Below, piece by piece: positions 1,146-38,656 of a stretch of DNA of 64,000 bases. Positions within the stretch are counted from its first letter, which is position 1, and each line of letters opens with the position of its first letter. This DNA is from Patescibacteria group bacterium (GTDB taxonomy: Bacteria; Patescibacteriota; Patescibacteriia; Patescibacteriales; JBAZCA01). The DNA lies in contig JBAZUF010000004.1 of assembly GCA_041661505.1 (NCBI GenBank), forward strand, positions 4,861 through 68,860. The letters run 5' to 3'. The position numbers and the translations under genes were made by a program. A model generated the notes under the pieces. The model did no database searches. It was not told where the DNA came from and saw only the letters and a program-made list of their open reading frames with translations.

Positions 1146-1217
1146 ATGAAGATAAAATCGCTAAAACTTAATTTGCTATTGTTATTGCCTTTAAAACGGG
1201 CGGCGATTTTGTGTTGA
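1146..1217 (+). CDS. leucine-rich leader peptide MKIKSLKLNLLLLLPLKRAAILC
   Basis: 23 codons, 9 of them Leu including 5 consecutive. It lies directly upstream of leuA and overlaps one arm of alternative hairpins. Confidence 0.7.
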   Translation: MKIKSLKLNLLLLLPLKRAAILC

Positions 1218-1272
1218 CATAAAATGTTAGACGGAAAGATACGCAAAGCCGCCCGAAAAGGTGGACTTTTTT
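1197..1272 (+). promoter_or_regulatory. leu attenuator: antiterminator 1197-1204:1248-1255 versus terminator 1245-1272
   Basis: CGGGCGGC is the perfect complement of GCCGCCCG. The latter overlaps the hairpin aaagccgcc/ggtgg(a)cttt, which runs into T6. Confidence 0.6.
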
Positions 1273-1338: not shown

Positions 1339-2946
1339 ATGGCTAAAGAAAAATACATCCAATTAAACGACGTCTGCCTTCGGGAATCGGCGCAGGTTTC
1401 CGGCGGCGCTATGAGCCCCAAGGATCAGCTTACTTATGTAAGATACCTTTTGGAAGGCGGAATCGACCGGATCGAAATCGGCTTTCCGGGCAGTTCTCCA
1501 GTGCAGTTAGAAAATTCAAAAAGGATCGTCGGTTTCGTAGACAAGAACGCGAAGGTTAAGCGGCCGCTTTTAGGCGGACTCGCGCGGGCGAAAAAAGAAG
1601 ACATTGACGCGATCCGCGAAGCCGGATGCGATTTATGCCATATCTATATTCCTTCTTCGGACGAATTCGTCAAAGCTATGTTTGCCGCGGAAAAATACGG
1701 AGATACGGTGGAGGGCAAGCAAAAGTGGACGATTGACCAGGCGGTAAGCATGGTGCGTTATGCGAAGAGTCTGGGATTTAAAAGCGTTGAATACTCGCCG
1801 GAAGACGCGGCCCGCACCAGCCGGGAATTTCTCTATAAGATGGTGGAGGCGGTAATTTCCGCCGGGGCGGACGTAGTTAATATTCCGGATACGACCGGAC
1901 TGCGCATCGGAAGCGAGTTCGGAGATTTAATCGCGGATATTGAAAAAAACGTGCCTAACCGGAAAAAAGCATTAATCTCGGTCCATTGCCATAACGATTC
2001 GGATCACTCAACCCATAACGCGCTAGAGGCGATTAGAAACGGAGCCGATATTGTCGAAGGGACTTTTTTCGGTCTGGGCGAGCGATCGGGGATGACCAAG
2101 TTTGAGGCGGTTTTAATGAATGTAAACACGCGCCAAGATCTGTTTAGCGGTTTTAAAATAGATTTTAAGCCGGAGCTTTGTGTTAAAATCGTAAACTTTA
2201 CCGCTAACGCCCTGGGCATGTCAGTCCCCAGGCATTGGGTTGTGGCCGGCTCGCAAAATTCTATTTGCTCATCCGGCACCCATCAGGCGATTGAAGCCCG
2301 GGCCAAAGAGCGGGGGATGGAAAGCGCTTATTACAGCTGGCATCCGGAAATTTACGGCCATTCTAAAGTTACCACGGTAATCAACCAGTCATCTGGACGG
2401 GAGGGCCTCCGAAAAAGGCTTGAGGAACTGGGCTATATGCTTGGCTCTGAGGAGATGCAGAAAGTTTACGAGCAGTCGATTAAAATCTCCGAAGCTATGG
2501 CCGGAAAGCCTTTAGAAGACCGGGAACTGGCGGCTATCGTGCATGAAACAATTGACGTTATTCCTTTCCCGATAAAAGTAAAAAGATGCCAGGCCATGGG
2601 CGGAAAAGGAACTATCCCGACCGCTACTGTTGTTATTGAGGTAGAGGGTAAAGAAGGAATCGCGGCCGAAATCGGCGTCGGACCTTATGACGCTATCATG
2701 CATTCCGTCGTCCGGGCGGCGGAAAATTTTTATCCTAAATTAAAAGAAGTGAATATTGTTTTGGACGCCTGGAATCCGACTTCGGTAACTTCCGGGTCGG
2801 ACGCTTTAGCCGATGTTTACGCGCGGATACGGATTAATGATGATATAAACCACGCCTTTTCCGGCCGGGCCGTCCATATCGATACCAACCAGGCTTCGGC
2901 CCAGGCTTTTGCCAACTGTTTAAGCTGGTATTTGGCCTCGCTTTAA
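1339..2946 (+). CDS. leuA: 2-isopropylmalate synthase
   Basis: DRE-TIM metallolyase motifs (HCHNDSDHSTHNAL, GLGERSG) plus a C-terminal LeuA-type regulatory domain (GVGPYDAIMHSV). leuCD and leuB follow. Confidence 0.9.
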   Translation: MAKEKYIQLNDVCLRESAQVSGGAMSPKDQLTYVRYLLEGGIDRIEIGFPGSSPVQLENSKRIVGFVDKNAKVKRPLLGGLARAKKEDIDAIREAGCDLCHIYIPSSDEFVKAMFAAEKYGDTVEGKQKWTIDQAVSMVRYAKSLGFKSVEYSPEDAARTSREFLYKMVEAVISAGADVVNIPDTTGLRIGSEFGDLIADIEKNVPNRKKALISVHCHNDSDHSTHNALEAIRNGADIVEGTFFGLGERSGMTKFEAVLMNVNTRQDLFSGFKIDFKPELCVKIVNFTANALGMSVPRHWVVAGSQNSICSSGTHQAIEARAKERGMESAYYSWHPEIYGHSKVTTVINQSSGREGLRKRLEELGYMLGSEEMQKVYEQSIKISEAMAGKPLEDRELAAIVHETIDVIPFPIKVKRCQAMGGKGTIPTATVVIEVEGKEGIAAEIGVGPYDAIMHSVVRAAENFYPKLKEVNIVLDAWNPTSVTSGSDALADVYARIRINDDINHAFSGRAVHIDTNQASAQAFANCLSWYLASL

Positions 2947-2964
2947 TATATCAAGTTTTAAAAT

Positions 2965-4899
2965 ATGCCGAAGACGGCTTTCCAAAAAATAATTGACGCT
3001 CACGTTAAGAAATTTTTTCCTGACCAAAGGATGGTTTTAGATTTGGATTGGGTATGGGGGCATGAAATTACAACGCCGAACGCCATTTTGGATATGAAAT
3101 CCCGGGGGATAAATTCGGTTTTTAACCCTAACCGGATAAAGCTGATGATTGACCATGTCAATCCGCCAAAAGATACGGCGTCGGCGATTCAGTCAAAAAT
3201 TGTCCGGGACTGGGCGCGGGAAATGGATATTGAATTTTTAGAAGTCGGCCGCAACGGCATTTGCCACGCGGTCATTCCGGAAAAGGGCTGGATCCGGCCG
3301 GGACAAATCGGCATCATGGGCGATTCGCATACCTGCACGCACGGGGCTTTTGGCGCGTTTACCGCCGGCGTCGGGACAACCGACCTGGAGAACGCGCTAA
3401 TTACTGGGCTTTGGATTTGCCCGCCGCAAAAAGTAGTTCGCGTAAATTTTAACGGCGAGCTGGCGAAAAATGTTTTTGCCAAAGATTTGATTTTGGTTTT
3501 GATAAAAAAAATCGGGGTCAAAGGCGCGGCTAACGCGGTACTGGAATTCGGCGGAACTGCCGTGAAAAATATGAGCATGGAAGGGCGGATGACAATCGCC
3601 AACATGGCAATTGAAGCCGGTGCTAGCTCGGGCATGATGATGACGGATGAAAAAACCATCGAATACCTTTGGCCGACTTTGAAGGATGAATTTAAAAATA
3701 GAAAAGAAGCTCTGGCTGATCTGTCAAAATGGAATAGTGACGCGGATGCGAAATATGATCAGGTAATTGATATGGATGCCAGTAAACTGGCGCCGGTAAT
3801 AACTGATAATTTTTCCCCGGAAGACGTCCATTCGGTTAAAGAATTGGCTGGCAAAAAAATTGACCAAGTCTATATCGGCTCCTGCACCAACGGAAGGATT
3901 TCCGATTTAAGGATTGCCGCCGGCGTGTTTAAAGCTATGGGAAAACCGGTACATAAAAATATCCGGTGCATCATCGTGCCGGCTACGGCGCATATTTACG
4001 GCCAGGCTTTGCGCGAAGGGTTAATCGAAATATTTTTACAAGCCGGCTGTTTAATAAGCGCTCCGACTTGCGGCGCTTGCCTGGGGATGTCAAATGGAGT
4101 AATCGCGCCGGGCGAAGTATGCGTTTCAACAACCAACCGCAATTTTCCCGGACGGATGGGAAAGGGCGGGATGGTCCATCTGGCTTCGCCAATAACCGCG
4201 GCTTTAGCGGCAGTGGATGGAAAAATTACCGAGCTGGGTATTGAACTTGGAGAAAAAGTTGAAAAATTTGTTTCTTCCATAATTAAAGACGGGACGCCTA
4301 TGTCTTTAACCGGCTGGAAAGAAAAAAAGGCCGGGCCAGTTGATTATAAAGCCATGCTGAAAAACATAGGCAATGGGGAAGAAAAAGATTTTTCCGGGCC
4401 AGCCGGCTATGCGCCGATAAAAAATATTGATACCGACCAAATTATACCGGCGCGATATTTAACCGAAACCGATAAAGCTGAACTGGGAAGGCATTGCCTG
4501 GAAGACGCTCAATTCAGCGCCGAAGAGAGAAAAATAATTTTAGAATCGCAAATTTTAGTAGCCGATGAAAATTTCGGCTGCGGTTCAAGCCGCGAGCACG
4601 CCCCTTGGGCCTTGGAAGCTAACGGCATAAGATGCGTTATTGCTCCGTCTTTCGCCCGGATTTTTTATAACAACATGTTTAATAATGGATTGCTCTGCAT
4701 TGAACTCCAGCCGGAAGAAATAAGTGAATTGATGGAGGTAAAGCCTAATAGCCTGGAAATTGACTGGAAGAATGGCGTTGCCAAAACGGAAAAAGGGAAG
4801 CAATACAAATTCAGCCTGTCTGATTATCAAAAAGAATTAATTAAAAATGGCGGCAGTGCCGGCTATATGCTAAAGCTGGCCGCGGATATTAATATTTAA
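2965..4899 (+). CDS. leuCD: 3-isopropylmalate dehydratase, fused large and small subunits
   Basis: 644 aa. The N-terminal aconitase-type LeuC part has GDSHTCTHGAFG and GSCTNGRISD. The C-terminal LeuD swivel part has IDTDQIIPARYL and GCGSSREHAPWAL. Confidence 0.9.
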   Translation: MPKTAFQKIIDAHVKKFFPDQRMVLDLDWVWGHEITTPNAILDMKSRGINSVFNPNRIKLMIDHVNPPKDTASAIQSKIVRDWAREMDIEFLEVGRNGICHAVIPEKGWIRPGQIGIMGDSHTCTHGAFGAFTAGVGTTDLENALITGLWICPPQKVVRVNFNGELAKNVFAKDLILVLIKKIGVKGAANAVLEFGGTAVKNMSMEGRMTIANMAIEAGASSGMMMTDEKTIEYLWPTLKDEFKNRKEALADLSKWNSDADAKYDQVIDMDASKLAPVITDNFSPEDVHSVKELAGKKIDQVYIGSCTNGRISDLRIAAGVFKAMGKPVHKNIRCIIVPATAHIYGQALREGLIEIFLQAGCLISAPTCGACLGMSNGVIAPGEVCVSTTNRNFPGRMGKGGMVHLASPITAALAAVDGKITELGIELGEKVEKFVSSIIKDGTPMSLTGWKEKKAGPVDYKAMLKNIGNGEEKDFSGPAGYAPIKNIDTDQIIPARYLTETDKAELGRHCLEDAQFSAEERKIILESQILVADENFGCGSSREHAPWALEANGIRCVIAPSFARIFYNNMFNNGLLCIELQPEEISELMEVKPNSLEIDWKNGVAKTEKGKQYKFSLSDYQKELIKNGGSAGYMLKLAADINI

Positions 4900-4900
4900 T

Positions 4901-6058
4901 ATGGCTAAAAAAATAATCGCATTAGTCGAAGGCGACGGGGCTGGCCCGGAAATGATGCATGAAGCCTGCCGGATAGCGGTTGCCGCCGCCAAAATGGACG
5001 GGATAGAAATTGAATTCGAAAAAACCCCGATGGGCTGGAATGCTTATCATGAACATGGCGATACCTTGCCCGAAGAATCCTTTGAAAAAGCGGTTCGCAT
5101 CGGAACTATTTTTTTCGGCGGCGTCGGCGATCCGAAGTTTGATAAAACCATAGGAATGGAAAAACCGGAAATGAGGCCGGAAGCCCGGGCGCTTTTGGCT
5201 TTAAGGAAAGAAATGGGTCTGTTTTTAAATTTTCGGCCGATTATTTATTATAAATCGCTTGAAGCGCTCGCTAACGTAAAACCGGAAACTATTCCCGAAG
5301 AAGGAGTAAAACAAATCTGGATCCGTTATTTATTGGAAGACAGCTATTTTGGCAATGCCGATTTAATGGACGAGGTGCCGGAAAAGGTGCGGCAGAAAAT
5401 CGGGCTAAAGATGAAAAAAGATGTTTGCCTGGAGGATGAGATAGTCTGCGACCTGGCTTATTATAAAAAATCCACGCTGGAAAAATATATCCGCGCCTGC
5501 TTTGCCTCTGCCCGCGAAATGAAACTGCCCTTAATTTCGATAGACAAGGCCAATGTCATGGCCCGCTATGATTTTTGGCGGAAAATCGCGACGAAAATCG
5601 GCGCCGAAGAATTCCCGGACGTGGAGCTTATCCATCAACTGGTCGACTCGGCCAATTCCATGCTTTTTACGCCGGCCAAATTGCATGGAGTTATCGCCTG
5701 CGGGAACGAGCATGGCGATATCTTATCGGACGGCGCGGCCGCGGCTTTGGGCAGTATGGGGCTCATGTGTTCTTCGGCAGTTAATCCTGATACGGGCCAG
5801 GCAATGTTCGAGTCCGGGGCCGGAACCGCTCCGACTTTAGCCGGCCAGGATAAGGCAAATCCTTTAGGCCGGATTTTAACCGGAGCGTTGATGCTTCGGC
5901 ACATTGGAGCAAAAAAAGGCGCAACTGCCATCGAAGAAGCTGTTAACCGCGCATTGTCAGAAGGCTGGCGCACCGGCGATTTGTTTACAAAAAAAGATGA
6001 CCCGGCCAAACTTTTAGGTACGCAAGCGATGGGGAAAAAAGTTTTGTCATATTTATAG
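4901..6058 (+). CDS. leuB: 3-isopropylmalate dehydrogenase
   Basis: Isocitrate/isopropylmalate dehydrogenase family (GDGAGPEMM, NEHGDILSDGAAA). Operon context supports the call. Confidence 0.9.
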   Translation: MAKKIIALVEGDGAGPEMMHEACRIAVAAAKMDGIEIEFEKTPMGWNAYHEHGDTLPEESFEKAVRIGTIFFGGVGDPKFDKTIGMEKPEMRPEARALLALRKEMGLFLNFRPIIYYKSLEALANVKPETIPEEGVKQIWIRYLLEDSYFGNADLMDEVPEKVRQKIGLKMKKDVCLEDEIVCDLAYYKKSTLEKYIRACFASAREMKLPLISIDKANVMARYDFWRKIATKIGAEEFPDVELIHQLVDSANSMLFTPAKLHGVIACGNEHGDILSDGAAAALGSMGLMCSSAVNPDTGQAMFESGAGTAPTLAGQDKANPLGRILTGALMLRHIGAKKGATAIEEAVNRALSEGWRTGDLFTKKDDPAKLLGTQAMGKKVLSYL

Positions 6059-6102: not shown

Positions 6103-6131
6103 TTGACAGCGGTAAAGGAATAAAATATAAT
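6103..6131 (+). promoter_or_regulatory. consensus promoter TTGACA-17-TATAAT
   Basis: Both hexamers are perfect with a 17-nt spacer. The predicted start is about 6138 and the mini-ORF ATG is at 6140. Confidence 0.7.
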
Positions 6132-6139
6132 ATTTATAT

Positions 6140-6238
6140 ATGCTTAACCTGGCAAGAAAAATCGTATTGATTGTCGTAGAGGTAGTAGTCATGGTAATGA
6201 CTCCTTTTCGCGTTTGCCGGGTTAGAGTAAGAGCATAA
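6140..6238 (+). CDS. Val/Ile/Leu-rich leader peptide MLNLARKIVLIVVEVVVMVMTPFRVCRVRVRA
   Basis: 32 codons with 10 Val, 2 Ile and 3 Leu, including the run IVLIVVEVVVMV. The mRNA is nearly leaderless, and the 3' part of the ORF forms an antiterminator arm. Confidence 0.7.
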   Translation: MLNLARKIVLIVVEVVVMVMTPFRVCRVRVRA

Positions 6239-6287
6239 AAAGAAAAAAAGCTAAGATGAACCCCCGGCAAACAAGCCGGGTTTTTTT
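6212..6287 (+). terminator. attenuator: antiterminator 6212-6221:6263-6272; terminator cccggc-aaacaa-gccggg plus T7
   Basis: gtttgccggg is the exact reverse complement of cccggcaaac. The terminator stem is 6263-6268/6275-6280, followed by ttttttt at 6281-6287. Confidence 0.7.
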
Positions 6288-6670
6288 GTAAGATGTTCTT
6301 TTGTAGACGGGTGGGCTAATTATGATAACGCGCCTGAAATGGCAAGCGAGCTAATCGTTTTTCGCTTCGGGCGCGTTAAGTAATTGTTTCCTTCGCGGCA
6401 GTCCTGGCGTGCGGCAAGCGACAAAATCGCTTCCAGCAGACGGCGACAGAATCGCCTCTCAATTTTAGCACATAGGGCAAAAACCCGAACAGGCATTTTC
6501 CTGCCAGGCTCTTTCCCGCAAGGCTTTTTTACAAGAGCTAACGCACCCGTAACAATATGGTGTTTCCAAAAGTTTGGAAGCATCCGGGGGGTCTATAGAT
6601 TGCAGATTGATTTATAGATCCCCCTCCTTCCTTTTTCATAATTTAATTAAATATTTAGCCAATTTTAGTC

Positions 6671-6699
6671 TTGACATATGGGCCAAAAAGCACTACTAT
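6671..6699 (+). promoter_or_regulatory. promoter TTGACA-17-TACTAT
   Basis: Perfect -35 hexamer, 17-nt spacer, and a 4/6 match at -10. The predicted start coincides with the ATG at 6706. Confidence 0.5.
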
Positions 6700-6705
6700 T
6701 ATCAT

Positions 6706-6759
6706 ATGATAACCAGACCGCAAAATATTTTATTGGTAAACTTGATTCTACCCACCTAG
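6706..6759 (+). CDS. second branched-chain leader peptide MITRPQNILLVNLILPT
   Basis: 17 codons, 8 of them Ile/Leu/Val. The spacing from the promoter implies a leaderless mRNA. It lies 110 nt upstream of the first ilv-cluster gene. Confidence 0.45.
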   Translation: MITRPQNILLVNLILPT

Positions 6760-6795
6760 ATGGCGGTTTTCCAGCATGGATAAAAGATAAAAACT

Positions 6796-6819
6796 GCCAC
6801 ACTAAAAGGTGGCTTTTTT
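6796..6819 (+). terminator. weak hairpin gccac/gtggc followed by T6
   Basis: 5-bp stem, 8-nt loop, and tttttt at 6814-6819. The upstream cccacc (6751-6756, the end of the mini-ORF) can pair with ggtgg (6808-6812). Confidence 0.4.
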
Positions 6820-6869
6820 AATATAGCGGGCCGTTTAAAAAGCCCGGGGAGAGAAAAAAACATAAAGAT

Positions 6870-8720
6870 ATGACCATCCAAAACGGGACAGTAAAATTTT
6901 ATAAGTTAAAATGCGTTCGATGCGGCGCTGTTTGGGATGAAAAAGAGACTTCGTCCGCCTGCTTAAAATGCGGCGACGCGCTGGAAGCCCACTACGACTG
7001 GGAGTTTATCAAATGCCGTTTAAACCAGTTCAATCTGAAATATACGCCGATTTCCGCCACCAAATATTTGAATTTTTACCCAATTTTGGATTTAAAAAAA
7101 TTAGTTACTTTAAATGAAGGCGGGACTCCCCTTCGAAAATCAAAAAAAATCGCCAAACGGCTGGGACTGGAAAACCTTTATTTTAAGGATGAAACTTCCA
7201 ACCCGACCGGCGGTTTTAAAGACCGGGGGACTATGGTGGAAATAACTAAGGCGCTTGAGATGGGAGCCAAAGCGGTGGTTGTGGCTTCCACCGGAAATAT
7301 GGCCGCTTCGGTTTCGGCTTATGCCAGTCAGGCGGGTATTCCGGCTTACATCGTCGTCCCCGAAGGAACGCCGATTGGAAAACTCTCCCAAACTTTGGCT
7401 TATGGCGCCCGGGTCATCCAAGTCCGCGCCACTTATTCGGAATGCGCGAAACTGGCCGAAGAAATAGCGAAAAAATACGGATTTTATTTGGCCGGTGATT
7501 ATGTTTTTCGGGGCGAGGGGCAGAAATCGCAAGGCTATGAAATTGTCGAACAATTATCCTGGCGCGCGCCGGACTATCTAATCGCGCCGATCGGCTGCGG
7601 GACCAATATCGCGGCGATTTATAAAGGCATAAAAGAATTTCACGATCTGGGCTTTATCGATAAATTGCCGAGAGTCATCGGCGTCCAGCCCGAAGGCGCC
7701 AATACCGTAGTCGACGCCTATAACCGCCGGTCAACGAAAATAAATCCAATTGCCAAGCCCAAAACAATCGCTTCGGCCGTCGCCGTCGGCTACCCTTTAG
7801 ACGGTTTAAAAGTTCTGCGCGATATTAAAGAATCAAAAGGCATGGCGATTAGCGTGAATGACGAAGAGATCTTAAACGCGGAAAAAGAACTGGCTTACGA
7901 GGAATCGATTTTTGTCGAACCGTCGGCCGCGCTTTCGCTGGCCGCCTTGAAAAAAATGTGTTCGAAAAAAATCGTCGGGAAAAATGAAACAGTGGTCTGC
8001 GTTTTGACCGGAAACGGGCTAAAAGATCCGGTAACCATGCTGAAAATTCTCCCATCGCCTCCGTCAATCGAGCCGAAACTCTCGGAAGTCGACCATTATT
8101 TGAAAATGAAATTATATAACATCCAGGCCACGGTCGAAAAAGATAAAGCGGAAATCCTCTTTAGCAAAGCGCCCGGTTTAGCCCAAATAAAAAAAACGGT
8201 GCAAAAGAAGTTCGGCCTGGACTTAACTAAAATTTATCTGGACGCTATCCACGCTGAAGTGAAAGAATTTTTTAATAAAGAAGAAAAAATGAGAAAATCG
8301 GATTTGCAGCACATCATTGAAGCTAATTTAAAAACCGATCCCAAGGCGGTAAAAATAATCAAAGTCGAAGATTTTAAAGTGAGCACTTCAAAAGCCGCTA
8401 AGGCCGAAGCCCAGGTTTGCGTAAAAATCGCCGAGAAACGCATCTGCCGGGTGAATTCTTTCGGCGTGGGGCCGGTGGACGCGATTATGAGAGCGATCCG
8501 CGAAGTCATTAAAAAAGAAAAACTGCCCAATTACTGGCTCATTAATTTTGACGTGAAAATCGACAGCAAAGGAACCGACGCGACGGTGGAAGTTACTATG
8601 GAATTAAAAGACGAAGCCGATAACAAAGTTATCTCAACCGCCGCTTCGCCGGACATTATTGTCGCTTCGATTGAAGCGTTTGAACGGGGATATAATATTC
8701 TCTATAATAAGAAAAAATAA
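6870..8720 (+). CDS. thrC: threonine synthase fused to a C-terminal LeuA-type (LeuA_dimer-like) regulatory domain
   Basis: N-terminal Zn ribbon (CVRCG...CLKCG). The PLP-lysine motif NPTGGFKDRG and ASTGNMAAS are typical of ThrC. The C-terminal ~200 aa (FGVGPVDAIMRAIREV...ASPDIIVASIEAFERGYNIL) resemble the regulatory domains of the LeuA and CimA proteins in this window. Confidence 0.8.
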   Translation: MTIQNGTVKFYKLKCVRCGAVWDEKETSSACLKCGDALEAHYDWEFIKCRLNQFNLKYTPISATKYLNFYPILDLKKLVTLNEGGTPLRKSKKIAKRLGLENLYFKDETSNPTGGFKDRGTMVEITKALEMGAKAVVVASTGNMAASVSAYASQAGIPAYIVVPEGTPIGKLSQTLAYGARVIQVRATYSECAKLAEEIAKKYGFYLAGDYVFRGEGQKSQGYEIVEQLSWRAPDYLIAPIGCGTNIAAIYKGIKEFHDLGFIDKLPRVIGVQPEGANTVVDAYNRRSTKINPIAKPKTIASAVAVGYPLDGLKVLRDIKESKGMAISVNDEEILNAEKELAYEESIFVEPSAALSLAALKKMCSKKIVGKNETVVCVLTGNGLKDPVTMLKILPSPPSIEPKLSEVDHYLKMKLYNIQATVEKDKAEILFSKAPGLAQIKKTVQKKFGLDLTKIYLDAIHAEVKEFFNKEEKMRKSDLQHIIEANLKTDPKAVKIIKVEDFKVSTSKAAKAEAQVCVKIAEKRICRVNSFGVGPVDAIMRAIREVIKKEKLPNYWLINFDVKIDSKGTDATVEVTMELKDEADNKVISTAASPDIIVASIEAFERGYNILYNKKK

Positions 8721-8721
8721 T

Positions 8722-9624
8722 ATGGAGACCACAAAATACATCTGGCAAAACGGAAAATTGGTAAATTGGGAAGACGCTAAAATCCATGTCTTAAGCCACT
8801 CGCTCCATTACGGCTCGGGGGTTTTTGAAGGCATCCGGGTTTATGAGACGAAAAAGGGCCCGGCGATTTTTCGCCTCCCAGAGCACGTGGACCGGTTTTT
8901 TTACTCGGCTAACGCGATGAAAATGAAAATGCCCTGGACTAAGGATGAGTTTAAGGCCGCCATAATTGAAACCGTGAAAAAAAACGATTTGAAATCGGGC
9001 TATATCCGGCCCCTGGCTTTTTACGGCTACGGCGAGCTTAGGATCAGCCCGCTAAAATGCCCGGTCGAAGCGATTATCGCCGCCTGGCCCTGGGGAAAAT
9101 ATTTATCGGCCGACCCGATTAAGGTAAAAGTTCCGGACTACATAAGAATTCATCCTAAGTCATCAATAGCAGACGCGAAAATTTGCGGCCATTATGTCAA
9201 TTCAATCCTTTCCTTTTTAGAGGTGGAAGCGGCCGGCTACCACGAAGCGCTTTTACTCGACTTTGAAGGAAACATCGCCGAAGGTCCGGGAGAAAATTTT
9301 TTTCTTGTGTCCGGCGGAAAATTGGCGACCCCAAAACTGGGAAATATTTTAGCGGGAATTACCCGGCAGTCGATTATTGAGCTTGCGGGCGATTTGGGAT
9401 ACGCGGTGGAAGAAAAAACAATTACGCTTGACGCCGCGATAGCGGCGGATGAATGCTTTTTTACCGGAACGGCGGCTGAAGTAACGCCGATCGGATCTAT
9501 TAATGATTGCCTGATTGCCGGCGGAGCCTTTGGCCCGATTACCCGGCGTTTTAACGACGAGTTTATGAAAATCGTTTCCGGGGAAAATGAAAAATACGAA
9601 AAATGGTTAACATACGCGAATTAA
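8722..9624 (+). CDS. ilvE: branched-chain amino acid aminotransferase
   Basis: Class IV aminotransferase (LHYGSGVFEGIRVYE, FTGTAAEVTPI). The start was chosen at METTKYIW, 1 nt after the thrC stop. Confidence 0.9.
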   Translation: METTKYIWQNGKLVNWEDAKIHVLSHSLHYGSGVFEGIRVYETKKGPAIFRLPEHVDRFFYSANAMKMKMPWTKDEFKAAIIETVKKNDLKSGYIRPLAFYGYGELRISPLKCPVEAIIAAWPWGKYLSADPIKVKVPDYIRIHPKSSIADAKICGHYVNSILSFLEVEAAGYHEALLLDFEGNIAEGPGENFFLVSGGKLATPKLGNILAGITRQSIIELAGDLGYAVEEKTITLDAAIAADECFFTGTAAEVTPIGSINDCLIAGGAFGPITRRFNDEFMKIVSGENEKYEKWLTYAN

Positions 9625-19397: not shown

Positions 19398-20012
19398 TTA
19401 TTTATCTCCTAAAATAAAATTTTTAAGCAGTATTTTTCCGCCTTCAGTGGCGAAAGATTCCGGGTGGAATTGGATTCCGCAGATTGGATATTTTTTGTGC
19501 TTTAGCCCCATAATTTCGCCGGTATCGGCGGCGCGGGCGGTTATTGCAAGGCATGAGGGAAGGGATTTAGCATCGGCTACAAGAGAATGGTAGCGCATGA
19601 CTTCAAGGTTTTGGGGCAGGCCGCGGAACAACCCTTTAGAGTCATGCATTATCCGGCTTACTTTTCCGTGCATCGGCCGCTTGGCTCTTATGACTTTTCC
19701 CCCGCAGTAATGGGCGATGCCTTGCATGCCCAGGCAAACGCCTAAAACCGGAATGGTTTTTCCCAGCCGGGTTATAACCTCGGCGCACACCCCGAAATAA
19801 GCCGGTTCGGACGGATCGCCGGGGCCGGGGGAAATTACTATTTTATCAAAGCCGCTTTTTTCAATCTGTCCGGCGGTAATTTCGCTGTTCCTTTTTACTA
19901 TAAGCTCAAAGGGCCGGTTTTCGGCTTCTAAAATTTCGCCGATATACTGGTAAAGGTTGTAAGTAAAGGAATCGTAATTGTCGATTATCAGGATTTTCAT
20001 AGAATTATTCAA
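19398..20012 (-). CDS. trpG: anthranilate synthase component II (glutamine amidotransferase)
   Basis: Class I GATase (GVCLGMQ, QFHPES). Overlaps trpE by 8 nt. Confidence 0.9.
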   Translation of the reverse strand: MNNSMKILIIDNYDSFTYNLYQYIGEILEAENRPFELIVKRNSEITAGQIEKSGFDKIVISPGPGDPSEPAYFGVCAEVITRLGKTIPVLGVCLGMQGIAHYCGGKVIRAKRPMHGKVSRIMHDSKGLFRGLPQNLEVMRYHSLVADAKSLPSCLAITARAADTGEIMGLKHKKYPICGIQFHPESFATEGGKILLKNFILGDK

Positions 20013-21417
20013 ATTCTTTTAGAACTTTCTTCATCGCGAAAAGCTTACTTTTAATTTCGGCGTATTCTTTTCCCGGTTTTGAGTCATAAACAATCCCGCC
20101 GCCGGTCTGGGCGTAGCCCTTATTTTTGTAAATGAATAATGACCTGATGGGAATGGCAAAAGTACATTCGCCGGAAAAGCCGAAATGCCCGACCGCGCCG
20201 CCGTAAGGGCCGCGCGCCTCATTTTCCTCGCGCTCGATTATTTTCATCGCTTCGATTTTTGGCGCGCCAGTCAAGGTTCCGGCCGGGAAATTGGCGGCCA
20301 GGGCGGAAAAGGCGTCTTCGCCTTCCCGGATGATGCCGGCCACTTCTGAAGAAATATGCTGGACGTGGCTGAATTTTTTTACATCCATGGCGTTTTTCAC
20401 TTTGACGGAACCGAACCGGGCGACCCGGCCGATGTCGTTTCTGTGCAAGTCGATTAGCATTGAATGTTCGGCGATTTCTTTCGGATCGGATAAAAGTCGG
20501 CGGGTAAGTTTTAAATCTTCGGCCCGGCTGGTCCCGCGAGCGGCCGTCCCGGCCAAGGGAAAAGTTTCCATTTCCCCCTCTCTTAACCTGAATAAAAGCT
20601 CGGGCGATGCGCCGATTATTTTTTCCGGACCGAATTTGAGGTAAAACATGTGGGGCGAAGGATTGACCTTCCGCAGACTTTCATAAATTAAAATATCATC
20701 TCCCCTTATTTCAAATTCGCTTTTAAACCCGGCCACGCACTGGAAGATTTTTCCCTCGGTTATGTCTTTTTTTATCCTTTTTACCATCGCCTCATGCTCT
20801 TTTTTGGTTTTTGTGTCCCGGATGAATTTTACCTTAAGTTTTTTCGGGCCGGAATTTTTTACCGCTGCGCCGCCGCCCTTTTTGCCGAAGGCCATTTTTT
20901 TTATCAAGGGCGCGCGGTTTTGGCCGTAGTGAAAGTAAAAAGATTCGCCCGTCATTTTATCGTAAACCAATCCGTCGGTGTAAACCCCGAATTTAAACTG
21001 GCTAAAATTTTTATGCGGCGCTAGATTAATAGCCGGCTCAAAATAATTCATGCCTTCGTAGGCGATATAGCCGATAAGGCCTCCGGCGTATTGGCGGGAA
21101 ATTACGTTATTGGGAACAATTTTCCTTAAGGCGTAATACGGATTTTCGACCCGGAATTTTTTAGTTTCAATCTTGCCGTTTTTGGCGCGGCAGTTTGTAA
21201 GGCTTAATTCATTTCCGGCGGCGGCCAAAATTGCTTCCGGGCCGAACCCGATTACGTGATAGCGCGAGCGGCCGCCCTCTTCGCCCAAGGATTCGAGAAT
21301 GAAGCAGTCTTCGAAATTTTCTTCAATTTTTTTGAATAGCTCAAAAAAATCAGCGTCCTCGGCGAATTTTATATAGCTCGGTTTTTTATTCTTAAGTTTT
21401 ATTTTCGGCAGCGTCAT
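20005..21417 (-). CDS. trpE: anthranilate synthase component I
   Basis: Chorismate-binding enzyme (FPAGTLTGAPK, GPYGGAVG). First gene after the T-box leader. Confidence 0.9.
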   Translation of the reverse strand: MTLPKIKLKNKKPSYIKFAEDADFFELFKKIEENFEDCFILESLGEEGGRSRYHVIGFGPEAILAAAGNELSLTNCRAKNGKIETKKFRVENPYYALRKIVPNNVISRQYAGGLIGYIAYEGMNYFEPAINLAPHKNFSQFKFGVYTDGLVYDKMTGESFYFHYGQNRAPLIKKMAFGKKGGGAAVKNSGPKKLKVKFIRDTKTKKEHEAMVKRIKKDITEGKIFQCVAGFKSEFEIRGDDILIYESLRKVNPSPHMFYLKFGPEKIIGASPELLFRLREGEMETFPLAGTAARGTSRAEDLKLTRRLLSDPKEIAEHSMLIDLHRNDIGRVARFGSVKVKNAMDVKKFSHVQHISSEVAGIIREGEDAFSALAANFPAGTLTGAPKIEAMKIIEREENEARGPYGGAVGHFGFSGECTFAIPIRSLFIYKNKGYAQTGGGIVYDSKPGKEYAEIKSKLFAMKKVLKEFE

Positions 21418-21502: not shown

Positions 21503-21781
21503 AAAAAACCTCCCATCCTTTTATCTAAATAAAATATTTTAGATAAAAGGACGAGAGGTTATCCCGCGGTGCCACCCTTTTTTCCTCCGCCCGAGGCGGA
21601 GAACGCTTACTGACTCGTAAATTGAAATCAGTTATCCTCTGGTTACGGAGGAAGCCGGGCCCTCACTAGCGCAAGAGCCGCCTTTCCCGTCCTGTATTGC
21701 GCAAGACGGGGTAAACTAGACCCAGTCCCTTGGCAGAACCAAGGGATCCAGTTTTAGGCTTTATAGTTGTTAAATTGCTTA
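21503..21781 (-). promoter_or_regulatory. T-box leader (tRNA-sensing riboswitch) of the trp operon, with a terminator
   Basis: The minus strand reads AAAAAAGGGUGGCACCGCGGGAUAACCUCUCGUCC, with the T-box core at 21563-21577. It is preceded by a Stem-III-like hairpin CUCCGCC-UCG-GGCGGAG. A long terminator hairpin at 21509-21558 ends in U6. Confidence 0.85.
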
Positions 21782-37081: not shown

Positions 37082-38656
37082 ATGCCAAAAGGAGTAAAGA
37101 TTTACGATACAACCTTGCGCGACGGGACCCAGGCGGAGAATTTCAGCCTGACGGTTTCCGATAAAATAAAGATCGCCTTAAAGCTTGATGATTTAGGCCT
37201 GCATTATATTGAAGGCGGCTGGCCGGGTTCTAACCCTAAGGACGCGGCTTTTTTTAATGAAATAAAAAAGCACGAATTGAAAAACGCGGTTATTGTTGCT
37301 TTTGGCTCGACTCATCATCCGGCGGTTTTAGCCGAAGATGACTTGAACCTGAAAGCCTTGGCCGATTCCGGCGCGAAAGCCGTAACAATTTTTGGCAAAG
37401 CCTGGACCGTGCAGGTAAAAGAAGCTTTGAATATCCCGCTGGAAAAAAATTTGGAAATAATTTTAGAAAGCTTAAGAATTTTGAGGCCGCGGGTTAAAGA
37501 GCTTTTTTTTGACGCCGAGCATTTTTTTGACGGTTATAAGGCGGATTCGGAATATGCTTTGGCGGTTTTATCTAGGGCCTTAGAAGGCGGGGCTGATTGT
37601 TTGGTGTTATGCGATACTAACGGCGGAAGCATGCCAAGCGATATCCGGCAAATTATCACTAAAGTCAAAGAAAGGTTTCCTGCGGCGGAATTAGGCATCC
37701 ATGCCCATAACGATTCCGAGCTGGCGGTAGCCAACACCATGACGGCGGTTAAGCTCGGAGCAGTCCAGGTTCAGGGAACGATTAACGGGATTGGCGAACG
37801 CTGCGGAAACGCGAATTTATGCTCAATAATTCCCAATCTGATTTTAAAAAAGGGTGTTATGTGCCTGCCGAAAGAAAATTTAAAAAAATTATCGGCCGCG
37901 AGCCGCTTTGTCAGCGAATTGGCGAATTTAAATCCTAACCGCTATCAGCCGTATGTCGGACAAAGCGCTTTTGCCCATAAGGGCGGAGTGCACATTAACG
38001 CCGCCTTGAAAAATCCGATGACTTATGAGCATATTGATCCGGCTTTGGTCGGGAACATCCGGCGCATTTTAGTTTCCGATCTTTCCGGCCGCTCGGCTAT
38101 AGCGAAAAAATTGGAAGACTTTGGCATTAATTTATCCAAGACTGATCCGGCGGCCTTGAAAATTTTAAATGAAGTAAAGGAATTGGAAAACCACGGCTAT
38201 CAGTTTGAAGCGGCCGAAGCCAGTTTTGAGCTTTTGGCCAGCCGCCTGCTTGGGAAAAACAAAAATTATTTCCAGTTGGTTGATTACCGGGTGACTGACT
38301 GCAAGGCCGGAGAAGGGGAGGCGCCGTCCATCGAGGCAACAGTAAGGATTAAAGTAAAAGATCGCGAAGAGCATAGCACGGCCAAAGGCGTCGGCCCGGT
38401 TGATGCCCTAAACAATGCTTTAAGAAAGTCTTTGGAAAAAATTTATCCCCAGCTAAACGGCATGAAGCTTACGGATTATAAGGTCCGGGTATTGCCGACG
38501 AATGACGGTACGGCGGCCCGGGTAAGGGTATTAATTGAATCCTGCGACGATAAAGACTACTGGGGCACGGTCGGGGTATCAGTTGATATATTAGAGGCAA
38601 GCTGGATGGCTTTAGTCGATAGTTTTAATTACAAATTGTATAAAGAAGAAAAATAA
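37082..38656 (+). CDS. cimA: (R)-citramalate synthase
   Basis: IYDTTLRDGTQAE, the YIEGGWPGSNPKD signature of the CimA branch, HAHNDSELAVANT, and a C-terminal regulatory domain GVGPVDALNNAL...VDILEASWMAL. Confidence 0.8.
   Translation: MPKGVKIYDTTLRDGTQAENFSLTVSDKIKIALKLDDLGLHYIEGGWPGSNPKDAAFFNEIKKHELKNAVIVAFGSTHHPAVLAEDDLNLKALADSGAKAVTIFGKAWTVQVKEALNIPLEKNLEIILESLRILRPRVKELFFDAEHFFDGYKADSEYALAVLSRALEGGADCLVLCDTNGGSMPSDIRQIITKVKERFPAAELGIHAHNDSELAVANTMTAVKLGAVQVQGTINGIGERCGNANLCSIIPNLILKKGVMCLPKENLKKLSAASRFVSELANLNPNRYQPYVGQSAFAHKGGVHINAALKNPMTYEHIDPALVGNIRRILVSDLSGRSAIAKKLEDFGINLSKTDPAALKILNEVKELENHGYQFEAAEASFELLASRLLGKNKNYFQLVDYRVTDCKAGEGEAPSIEATVRIKVKDREEHSTAKGVGPVDALNNALRKSLEKIYPQLNGMKLTDYKVRVLPTNDGTAARVRVLIESCDDKDYWGTVGVSVDILEASWMALVDSFNYKLYKEEK

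Follow-up and report, generated by a model that had tools for sequence, protein, structure and literature searches.

A putative leucine-responsive leader-peptide attenuator upstream of leuA in a Patescibacteria group bacterium

The enterobacterial leu leader (leuL) joins an open reading frame (ORF) carrying Leu codons, among them repeats of the rare CUA codon, to alternative pairings of RNA segments 2:3 or 3:4 and an intrinsic terminator, the outcome being decided by the position of the ribosome. Ribosome-mediated attenuation of this kind needs coupled transcription and translation. In Firmicutes, amino-acid operons are usually controlled at the RNA level by T-box leaders, and leaderless or near-leaderless leader ORFs are known among the leader peptides of Actinobacteria. 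The Patescibacteria, or candidate phyla radiation (CPR), are usually portrayed as reduced symbionts of limited capacity for amino-acid biosynthesis, and to our knowledge little is known about how they regulate their genes. Described here is a Leu-codon leader, with a predicted terminator and antiterminator, that precedes leuA in a 64,000-nucleotide (nt) stretch of DNA from a Patescibacteria group bacterium (GenBank assembly GCA_041661505.1, contig JBAZUF010000004.1); the whole of this stretch is called the window below.

Two further systems invite comparison. For the ilv-leu operon of Staphylococcus aureus, one report describes a Leu-rich attenuator peptide that acts together with CodY (PMC5794164). 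The actinobacterial LEU element forms a pseudoknot in which the Leu codons pair with the Shine-Dalgarno sequence, and it is without an obvious classical terminator (PMC1262725). From sequence and modelling, the probability that the patescibacterial element is a functional Leu-responsive, ribosome-mediated leader-peptide attenuator for leuA-leuCD-leuB is put at roughly 0.85.

A Leu-codon leader with competing RNA structures

An earlier note on this DNA had proposed a leader ORF running from ATG 1146 to TGA 1215-1217 with five consecutive Leu codons, and this matches the sequence exactly. The ORF (1146-1217, plus strand) has 23 codons and lies directly upstream of leuA; nine of the codons encode Leu, the consecutive five occupying 1173-1187. 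The elements of the region are as follows, all on the plus strand.

658-686: putative sigma-70-type promoter, TTGACA-17-TATAGT, an 11/12 match to the consensus
713-1141: ORF of 142 amino acids between promoter and leader, with weak coiled-coil-type matches only (the coiled-coil ORF)
1146-1217: leader ORF, product MKIKSLKLNLLLLLPLKRAAILC followed by the stop codon; homologous Leu-rich ORFs in 14 of 15 related loci
1173-1187: five-Leu run TTG CTA TTG TTA TTG, proposed sensing codons together with 1161-1163 and 1167-1169
1185-1203: weak 1:2 hairpin in which the last Leu codon and CCU pair with GGGCGG; candidate anti-antiterminator or pause hairpin
1197-1214: segment 2, antiterminator 5' arm, with core CGGGCGGC (1197-1204) and UUUGUGU (1208-1214), within the 3' end of the leader ORF
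1241-1255: segment 3, antiterminator 3' arm, overlapping the terminator 5' arm at 1245-1253
1245-1272: predicted intrinsic terminator, hairpin 1245-1269 with core CCGCC-CGAAAA-GGUGG, and U-tract 1267-1272
1339-6058: genes proposed to be regulated, namely leuA (1339-2946), fused leuCD (2965-4899) and leuB (4901-6058)

Runs of at least five Leu residues occur six times in the six-frame translation of the window, compared with 0.7 in dinucleotide shuffles. Such a run is not rare alone, and the case consequently rests on the combination of features and on the comparison with other loci. The frequency of these runs would suit a chance arrangement in which hairpin 1245-1272 simply terminates the coiled-coil gene and the small ORF, if not spurious, specifies an independent hydrophobic micro-peptide, as would the hydrophobic, signal-peptide-like character of the leader product; how this reading fares is decided by the related loci described below.

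The core of segment 2, CGGGCGGC, is the exact reverse complement of GCCGCCCG (1248-1255), and the latter belongs to the 5' arm of the hairpin that runs into the six T residues, both as the earlier note had claimed. The hairpin folds at -9.4 kcal/mol and is listed as terminator-like by a consensus scan. It makes a modest terminator: the core stem CCGCC/GGUGG includes one G-U pair (1251-1262), A1265 is bulged, and the lowest three pairs take up the first three U of the tract at 1267-1272. The antiterminator is longer than earlier described, with pairing of 1197-1204 to 1248-1255 and of 1208-1214 to 1241-1247, and an outer helix of 1187-1192 with 1257-1262; it was calculated at -23.6 to -28.3 kcal/mol, versus -9.1 kcal/mol for the terminator. 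Folding of 1140-1340, a calculation suggested in the earlier note, places the antiterminator, and not the terminator, in the minimum free energy structure, and the complementarity between segments 2 and 3 was matched in only 1 of 1000 shuffles. The 1:2 hairpin comprises six pairs, three of them G-U, at -4.8 kcal/mol. It is stronger in the related locus L082, while strong, long 1:2 helices are found in L096, L088, L097, L087 and L098.

The consequences of ribosome position were calculated with a footprint model in which the ribosome masks all RNA up to 12 nt past the first base of the codon in its A site. When one of the Leu codons at 1161-1185 occupies the A site, the probability of the terminator, P(terminator), is 0.00-0.01 in the window, and with the A site at 1191 or later it rises to 0.93, which is also the value at the stop codon. 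The same flip between stalled and stopped ribosomes, from approximately 0 in the Leu run to 0.93-0.99 at the stop codon, is seen in 11 of the 14 loci modelled. This geometry fits the proposed logic that a ribosome reaching the stop codon lets the terminator form and that a stall at the Leu codons favours the antiterminator. The stalling range first given, 1161-1193, should effectively end at about 1185, since in the model the Leu codon at 1191 is too near segment 2 for a sensing role. The ribosome-free RNAs of L096, L088, L097, L087 and L098 are predicted to adopt a strong 1:2 helix together with the terminator, which is the classical super-attenuated state, and those of the window, L095, L082, L091 and L092 to favour the antiterminator.

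Conservation and covariation at related leuA loci

The best relatives of the window's LeuA are labelled Patescibacteria group bacterium, the name that is also attached to a deposited partial protein with 100% identity to it. This LeuA belongs to a clade of approximately 50 proteins that share 48-84% identity, the next relatives being at most 38% identical. The DNA around members of this clade formed the comparison set, with 15 distinct loci whose LeuA proteins are 50-85% identical; a profile search of metagenome contigs with a CPR-specific LeuA sub-alignment contributed to it, yielding seven loci, four of them new. A search of genome contigs with a 51-sequence alignment of CPR LeuA proteins picked up generic LeuA motifs and only non-CPR loci, and these were reused as a control.

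A Leu-rich mini-ORF and a predicted intrinsic terminator precede leuA in 14 of the 15 CPR-clade loci. The absence of the ORF from related genomes, which the earlier note had named as grounds for abandoning its proposal, is not what these 14 loci show, and the comparison of leuA upstream regions that it had called for reveals leader, terminator and covarying antiterminator to be conserved among relatives with LeuA proteins 52-85% identical. In all 14 leader-bearing loci the hairpin and U-tract sit 24-36 nt past the leader stop codon. Among the non-CPR control loci, a Leu-rich mini-ORF lies upstream of leuA in 5 of 74, and some of these may be genuine attenuators. Against this background rate, the recurrence of ORF, terminator and antiterminator is at odds with a chance arrangement: they are found together at leuA loci that have no coiled-coil gene and possess a promoter of their own, and the loci are not assembly duplicates, given the 50-85% identity of their LeuA proteins and the origin of the contigs from different samples. 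Because the element is conserved where the coiled-coil gene is missing, the reading of a plain terminator next to a chance ORF is regarded as excluded for practical purposes, and its likelihood as extremely small.

The pattern of conservation within the leaders is equally restricted. The peptides of relatives, such as MLIKLTVKLFNLLLLLPLRRVAVFS (L082), MKQVTLKNLLLGLLLLLLPQRVACFNVKI (L096), MRQAAQNLLLALLLLSPRRVACFHAF (L088) and MKKVYVKNLLLGLLLLFTSGLVFV (L092), keep the Leu run and the RNA-pairing segment that follows it and do not keep the remainder, a pattern that again speaks against a spurious or micro-peptide ORF. Leu codons are swapped synonymously among the loci (TTG, TTA, CTA, CTT, CTC and CTG; for example, TTG to CTC), and this free exchange indicates selection on Leu coding rather than on nucleotides. 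A distance of 6-10 nt from the Leu run to segment 2 is conserved across loci, and from the end of the segment 2 site it is always 2-17 nt to the leader stop codon.

In each leader, segment 2 is complementary to the terminator 5' arm of the same locus, and both arms change jointly, as seen in the following pairs of segment 2 and segment 3.

CGGGCGGC / GCCGCCCG (window)
CGGGUGGC / GCCACCCG
GGGUGGCUA / UAGCUAUCC
GUGGUUAGU / ACUAGCCAC
GCGGUCUU / AAGACUGC
CGGGUGGU / ACCACCCG

For ten relatives, the energy of the segment 2/3 duplex was reached by 0-15 of 1000 shuffles per locus. In a hand-registered mini-alignment, five of nine antiterminator pairs are changed on both sides, and 88% of the cells are paired versus 32-50% with the partner slid. 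RNAalifold applied to the raw, uncurated MAFFT alignment returned the long-range antiterminator helix as the consensus structure. The register of the terminator stem varies between loci, hence covariation is expressed column by column for the antiterminator and not for the terminator.

These data also bear on the notion that a trans-acting factor or ligand (a protein, a tRNA or a metabolite) sets the switch, the Leu-rich ORF being incidental. Such a notion could draw on the leader having no Shine-Dalgarno sequence and on the RNA arm CGGGUGGC, which explains part of the conservation of the peptide (P-x-R-R-V-A). It is countered by the end of the ORF falling always 2-17 nt past segment 2, and by the occurrence in the window of the same design with other cognate amino acids before ilv and aro genes. 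Moreover, at gathering score the Rfam leader families gave no leader, riboswitch or T-box at the leu site in a scan of the whole window, Leu_leader (RF00512) included; at E up to 10, the sole leader match within 1-1500 was to Phe_leader, with 18 bits (gathering score 55) and E = 6.1, and neither a riboswitch model nor the T-box model RF00230 found a match in the same interval. As no Rfam model matches, and as the Leu run, although located beyond the paired arms, still encodes Leu after synonymous changes that affect up to three bases, a switch thrown by a trans-acting ligand or tRNA is considered very unlikely.

Several of the related loci have features of their own. L100 and L101, of a Parcubacteria-labelled clade, have a leader MK..QNLLALLLLVEEGFCVG with a terminator, and in L101 a second, tandem small ORF, MKHHFVQKLHKWLPLLLSVCFCVE, is followed by its own hairpin and U-tract (2832-2960). 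In L084, the Leu attenuator and leuA are separated by an insert of approximately 190 nt (3870-3990) that contains an extended, imperfect inverted repeat, cgtcattctgagg...cctcaggatgacg, as well as a second hairpin; this locus also has leuB and leuCD inverted with respect to leuA, and a fusion of LeuB with DUF559. In L088, an Ile-rich mini-ORF, MNLFQSAKIISIIEIIIIDDHFCAL (1026-1140), stands before a second LeuA-family gene, called at 565 amino acids and possibly a citramalate synthase, which is directly upstream of the leuA that follows the Leu leader; the called start of this gene overlaps the Ile-rich mini-ORF and may be wrong. Among the control loci, Leu-rich mini-ORFs precede leuA in L012, L028, L047 and L048, which derive from metagenome-assembled genomes of Bacteroidota, Kiritimatiellae, Syntrophaceae and Deltaproteobacteria; these ORFs, of which MKKALVNLNGNATLLLLALLGLLPNGRRPSFLGNP is an example, may be further Leu leaders.

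Transcription, leader translation and the proposed mechanism

The only strong promoter-like site is that at 658-686, upstream of the coiled-coil gene, and a transcript that comprises the coiled-coil ORF, the leader and leuA probably begins there. Three 33-nt repeats (DDLTGKIDGVR units) stand in tandem in the coiled-coil ORF at approximately 790-890, and its central segment alone aligns with the homologous ORF that occupies this place in L082, at 35% identity over 99 residues. The ORF ends 4 nt before the leader ATG, and the adjacency reported earlier stands. Between the two ORFs a single promoter match exists (1131-1158, 9/12), and it was rejected because its -10 element lies within the leader ORF and could not drive a translatable leader, in agreement with the earlier note, which had seen no intervening promoter. 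Co-transcription of the coiled-coil gene with the leu leader, as had been suggested, is accordingly plausible from the sequence, the layout in L082 being alike, with a promoter TTGACA-17-TATTAT (3370-3398) upstream of the homologous ORF.

No Shine-Dalgarno sequence was found before ATG 1146 in the window, and translational coupling to the upstream ORF would explain how the leader is translated without one. In L082 and L095, the leader ATG overlaps the stop codon of the upstream ORF (ATGTTTAA). The window and these two loci have no near-consensus promoter adjoining the leader and have the coiled-coil ORF before it instead; L084 has a different ORF, of 42 amino acids, in the same slot, behind a promoter TTGACA-17-TATAAT. 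A second arrangement is seen in L087, L088, L091, L092, L096, L097 and L098, in which the leader ATG has no Shine-Dalgarno sequence and follows the end of a near-consensus promoter (TTGACA, 16-17 nt, TATACT-like) by 6-12 nt. With so short a distance and no Shine-Dalgarno sequence, the leaders of these seven distant relatives are probably leaderless or nearly so. Most of the seven genomes have a solitary leuA behind the leader, without leuBCD in the vicinity.

The mechanism proposed from these elements is as follows. Transcription would start at the probable promoter 658-686 and pass through the coiled-coil ORF into the leader, whose 23 codons would be translated, probably by coupling or re-initiation 4 nt past the upstream stop codon. 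If charged tRNA-Leu is scarce, the ribosome would stall in the Leu run, with its A site at approximately 1161-1185, leaving segment 2 (1197-1214) free to pair with segment 3 (1241-1255); this antiterminator would sequester the terminator 5' arm and allow RNA polymerase to read through into leuA. With leucine plentiful, the ribosome would reach the stop codon at 1215-1217 and cover segment 2, segment 3 would pair with segment 4 (1260-1269), and transcription would end at the U-tract 1267-1272. What is predicted here is that the leader is translated, that transcription terminates at 1267-1272 and that the outcome depends on leucine; the elements on which this prediction is built are present in the sequence, conserved, covarying and consistent in geometry.

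Several considerations weigh against this mechanism. The footprint model is thermodynamic and not kinetic, and the count of five covarying pairs in nine depends on a register made by hand. L090 has no leader, the sole exception among the 15 loci, and L084 is terminator-favouring at most modelled stall positions, with P(terminator) at 0.36-0.97. Lacking a Shine-Dalgarno sequence, the leader depends for its translation on coupling to the upstream ORF, or on leaderless initiation in the distant relatives. In the window, the terminator is weak, at -9 kcal/mol and with both a bulge and a G-U pair, and the 1:2 hairpin is so weak that the ribosome-free RNA is predicted to be in the antiterminator, or read-through, state. 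L100 and L101 have leader and terminator without a clearly overlapping antiterminator in the model. Finally, the attenuator-like leaders of leuA and ilvB in Streptomyces coelicolor did not behave classically when mutated, as summarised in PMC1262725.

The points from the weak terminator onward would also suit an account in which leader and structures are real and conserved and the output is non-classical, be it Rho-dependent termination, mRNA stability, translation of leuA, or sensing without stalling at Leu codons. Such an account is unlikely: a canonical hairpin and U-tract occur in 14 of 14 leader-bearing loci, the covarying arm is exactly the terminator 5' arm, the spacing of 6-10 nt from Leu run to segment 2 is kept, and the modelled stalled and stopped states are opposite in 11 of 14 loci. 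Ribosome-mediated attenuation by the leader peptide remains, in our judgement, the reading that best unites these observations.

An amino-acid island and the comparison with known systems

Downstream of the leu genes follow a fusion of a threonine-synthase-like protein with a LeuA domain and then ilvE, ilvD, ilvB and ilvC; the window also encodes trpEGDCFBA, the shikimate pathway, asd, aspartokinase, pheA and tyrA. The fusion (6870-8720, plus strand; 616 amino acids) joins a threonine-synthase-type pyridoxal-phosphate domain (PRK08197, 318 bits with a cut-off of 303) to a C-terminal LeuA allosteric/dimerisation domain. The ilv cluster begins with this fusion gene, whose like is also present in L081 and L082; the product may be a threonine synthase or dehydratase regulated by branched-chain amino acids. 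The shikimate set includes an archaeal-type dehydroquinate synthase II (DHQS II) and a DeoC-family aldolase, and a second LeuA-family gene (37082-38656) and serA/serC-like genes are also found in the window. The whole is an amino-acid biosynthesis island in a genome of a group that is commonly said to lack such pathways.

Three further candidate amino-acid leaders in the window flip in the footprint model as the leu leader does. The first, a Val/Ile-rich mini-ORF, MLNLARKIVLIVVEVVVMVMTPFRVCRVRVRA (6140-6238, plus strand), lies behind a perfect TTGACA-17-TATAAT promoter (approximately 6104-6132) and before a terminator CCCGGC-AAACAA-GCCGGG-T7 at 6263-6287, to whose 5' arm GUUUGCCGGG inside the ORF is complementary; its P(terminator) rises from 0.01-0.15 with a stalled ribosome to 0.99 with one at the stop codon. 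The next approximately 580 nt are free of plus-strand genes and contain a minus-strand ORF of 87 amino acids (6320-6583). The second, a mixed Ile/Leu/Val leader, MITRPQNILLVNLILPT (6706-6759, plus strand; region 6672-6820), has its own promoter and a terminator GCCAC-ACUAAAA-GGUGGC-T6, and after it come the gene at 6870 and ilvE-ilvD-ilvB-ilvC. In the window a stalled ribosome gives a P(terminator) of 0.0 and one at the stop codon a value of 0.99, and L082 has a homologue of this leader, MTEKLPKILDIVVVVSLIIPT (8783-8910). The third is an aromatic leader with Phe, Tyr and Trp codons, MKFGQIWFSYFYFYFNLIKRPAFCRIN (31609-31526, minus strand; region 31609-31470), behind a promoter TTGACA-17-TATTAT; it has an antiterminator arm AAGGCCGG and a terminator at 31497-31477 with T7, and P(terminator) is 0-0.08 with stalling at these codons and 0.98 at the stop codon. 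It stands upstream of the minus-strand aro operon, which encodes the DeoC-type aldolase, DHQS II, aspartokinase, asd, aroA, aroK/E, aroD and aroC.

A sub-threshold T-box (21544-21697, minus strand) was found upstream of trpE (20005-21417, minus strand), with 36.9 bits against a gathering score of 93 and E = 1e-6 in a local scan. It was missed at gathering score and leaves the Stem I part of the model largely unmatched; a clear T-box motif, AGGGUGGCACCGCGGG, is present, and a hairpin with a U-tract comes after it.

Put together, these elements raise a wider proposal, to which we would give about even odds: that Patescibacteria keeping such an island control it by a full set of leader-peptide attenuators together with a divergent trp T-box, with leaderless leaders in most relatives and re-initiation from the coiled-coil gene in the subclade of the window. 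The lineage carries complete sets of genes for the branched-chain, tryptophan and shikimate pathways and appears to regulate them by textbook ribosome-mediated attenuation; if true, the wider proposal would be direct sequence evidence that CPR bacteria couple transcription tightly to translation and sense amino-acid starvation. No Rfam family matches the leu element, and the 14-locus alignment could seed a new family of the Rfam type and so improve the annotation of CPR genomes. The mechanism itself is already known; the element is an addition to the leader-peptide attenuators, in a phylum for which full-text searches of the literature on leader peptides and attenuation in Patescibacteria/CPR found no relevant report.

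The closest likeness is to the enterobacterial leuL (RF00512), with which the element shares a leader of consecutive Leu codons before leuA, alternative 2:3 and 3:4 pairing and an intrinsic terminator. It differs from leuL in having no sequence or structure match to the Rfam model, in its five mixed Leu codons (TTG/CTA/TTA) where leuL repeats CUA, in its very weak 1:2 hairpin, in its patescibacterial host and in its position 4 nt behind another ORF without a promoter or Shine-Dalgarno sequence of its own. With the T-box (RF00230) it shares a regulatory purpose, although the proposed leu element would sense through translation and not through tRNA binding. The promoters 6-12 nt before the leader ATG in the seven distant CPR relatives recall the leaderless or near-leaderless ORFs of actinobacterial leader peptides. 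The S. aureus ilv-leu leader (PMC5794164) is, like the Lactococcus leu leader, a further case of branched-chain attenuation by a leader peptide outside the Proteobacteria; these belong to different phyla and are unrelated in sequence, and the Rfam scan detected no homology. A Leu-run ORF before a stand-alone leuA is also a feature of the actinobacterial LEU element (PMC1262725) and of the leuA leader peptide of Corynebacterium glutamicum (PMC3890552). Unlike the LEU element, the CPR element possesses a canonical terminator and a covarying antiterminator (PMC1262725).

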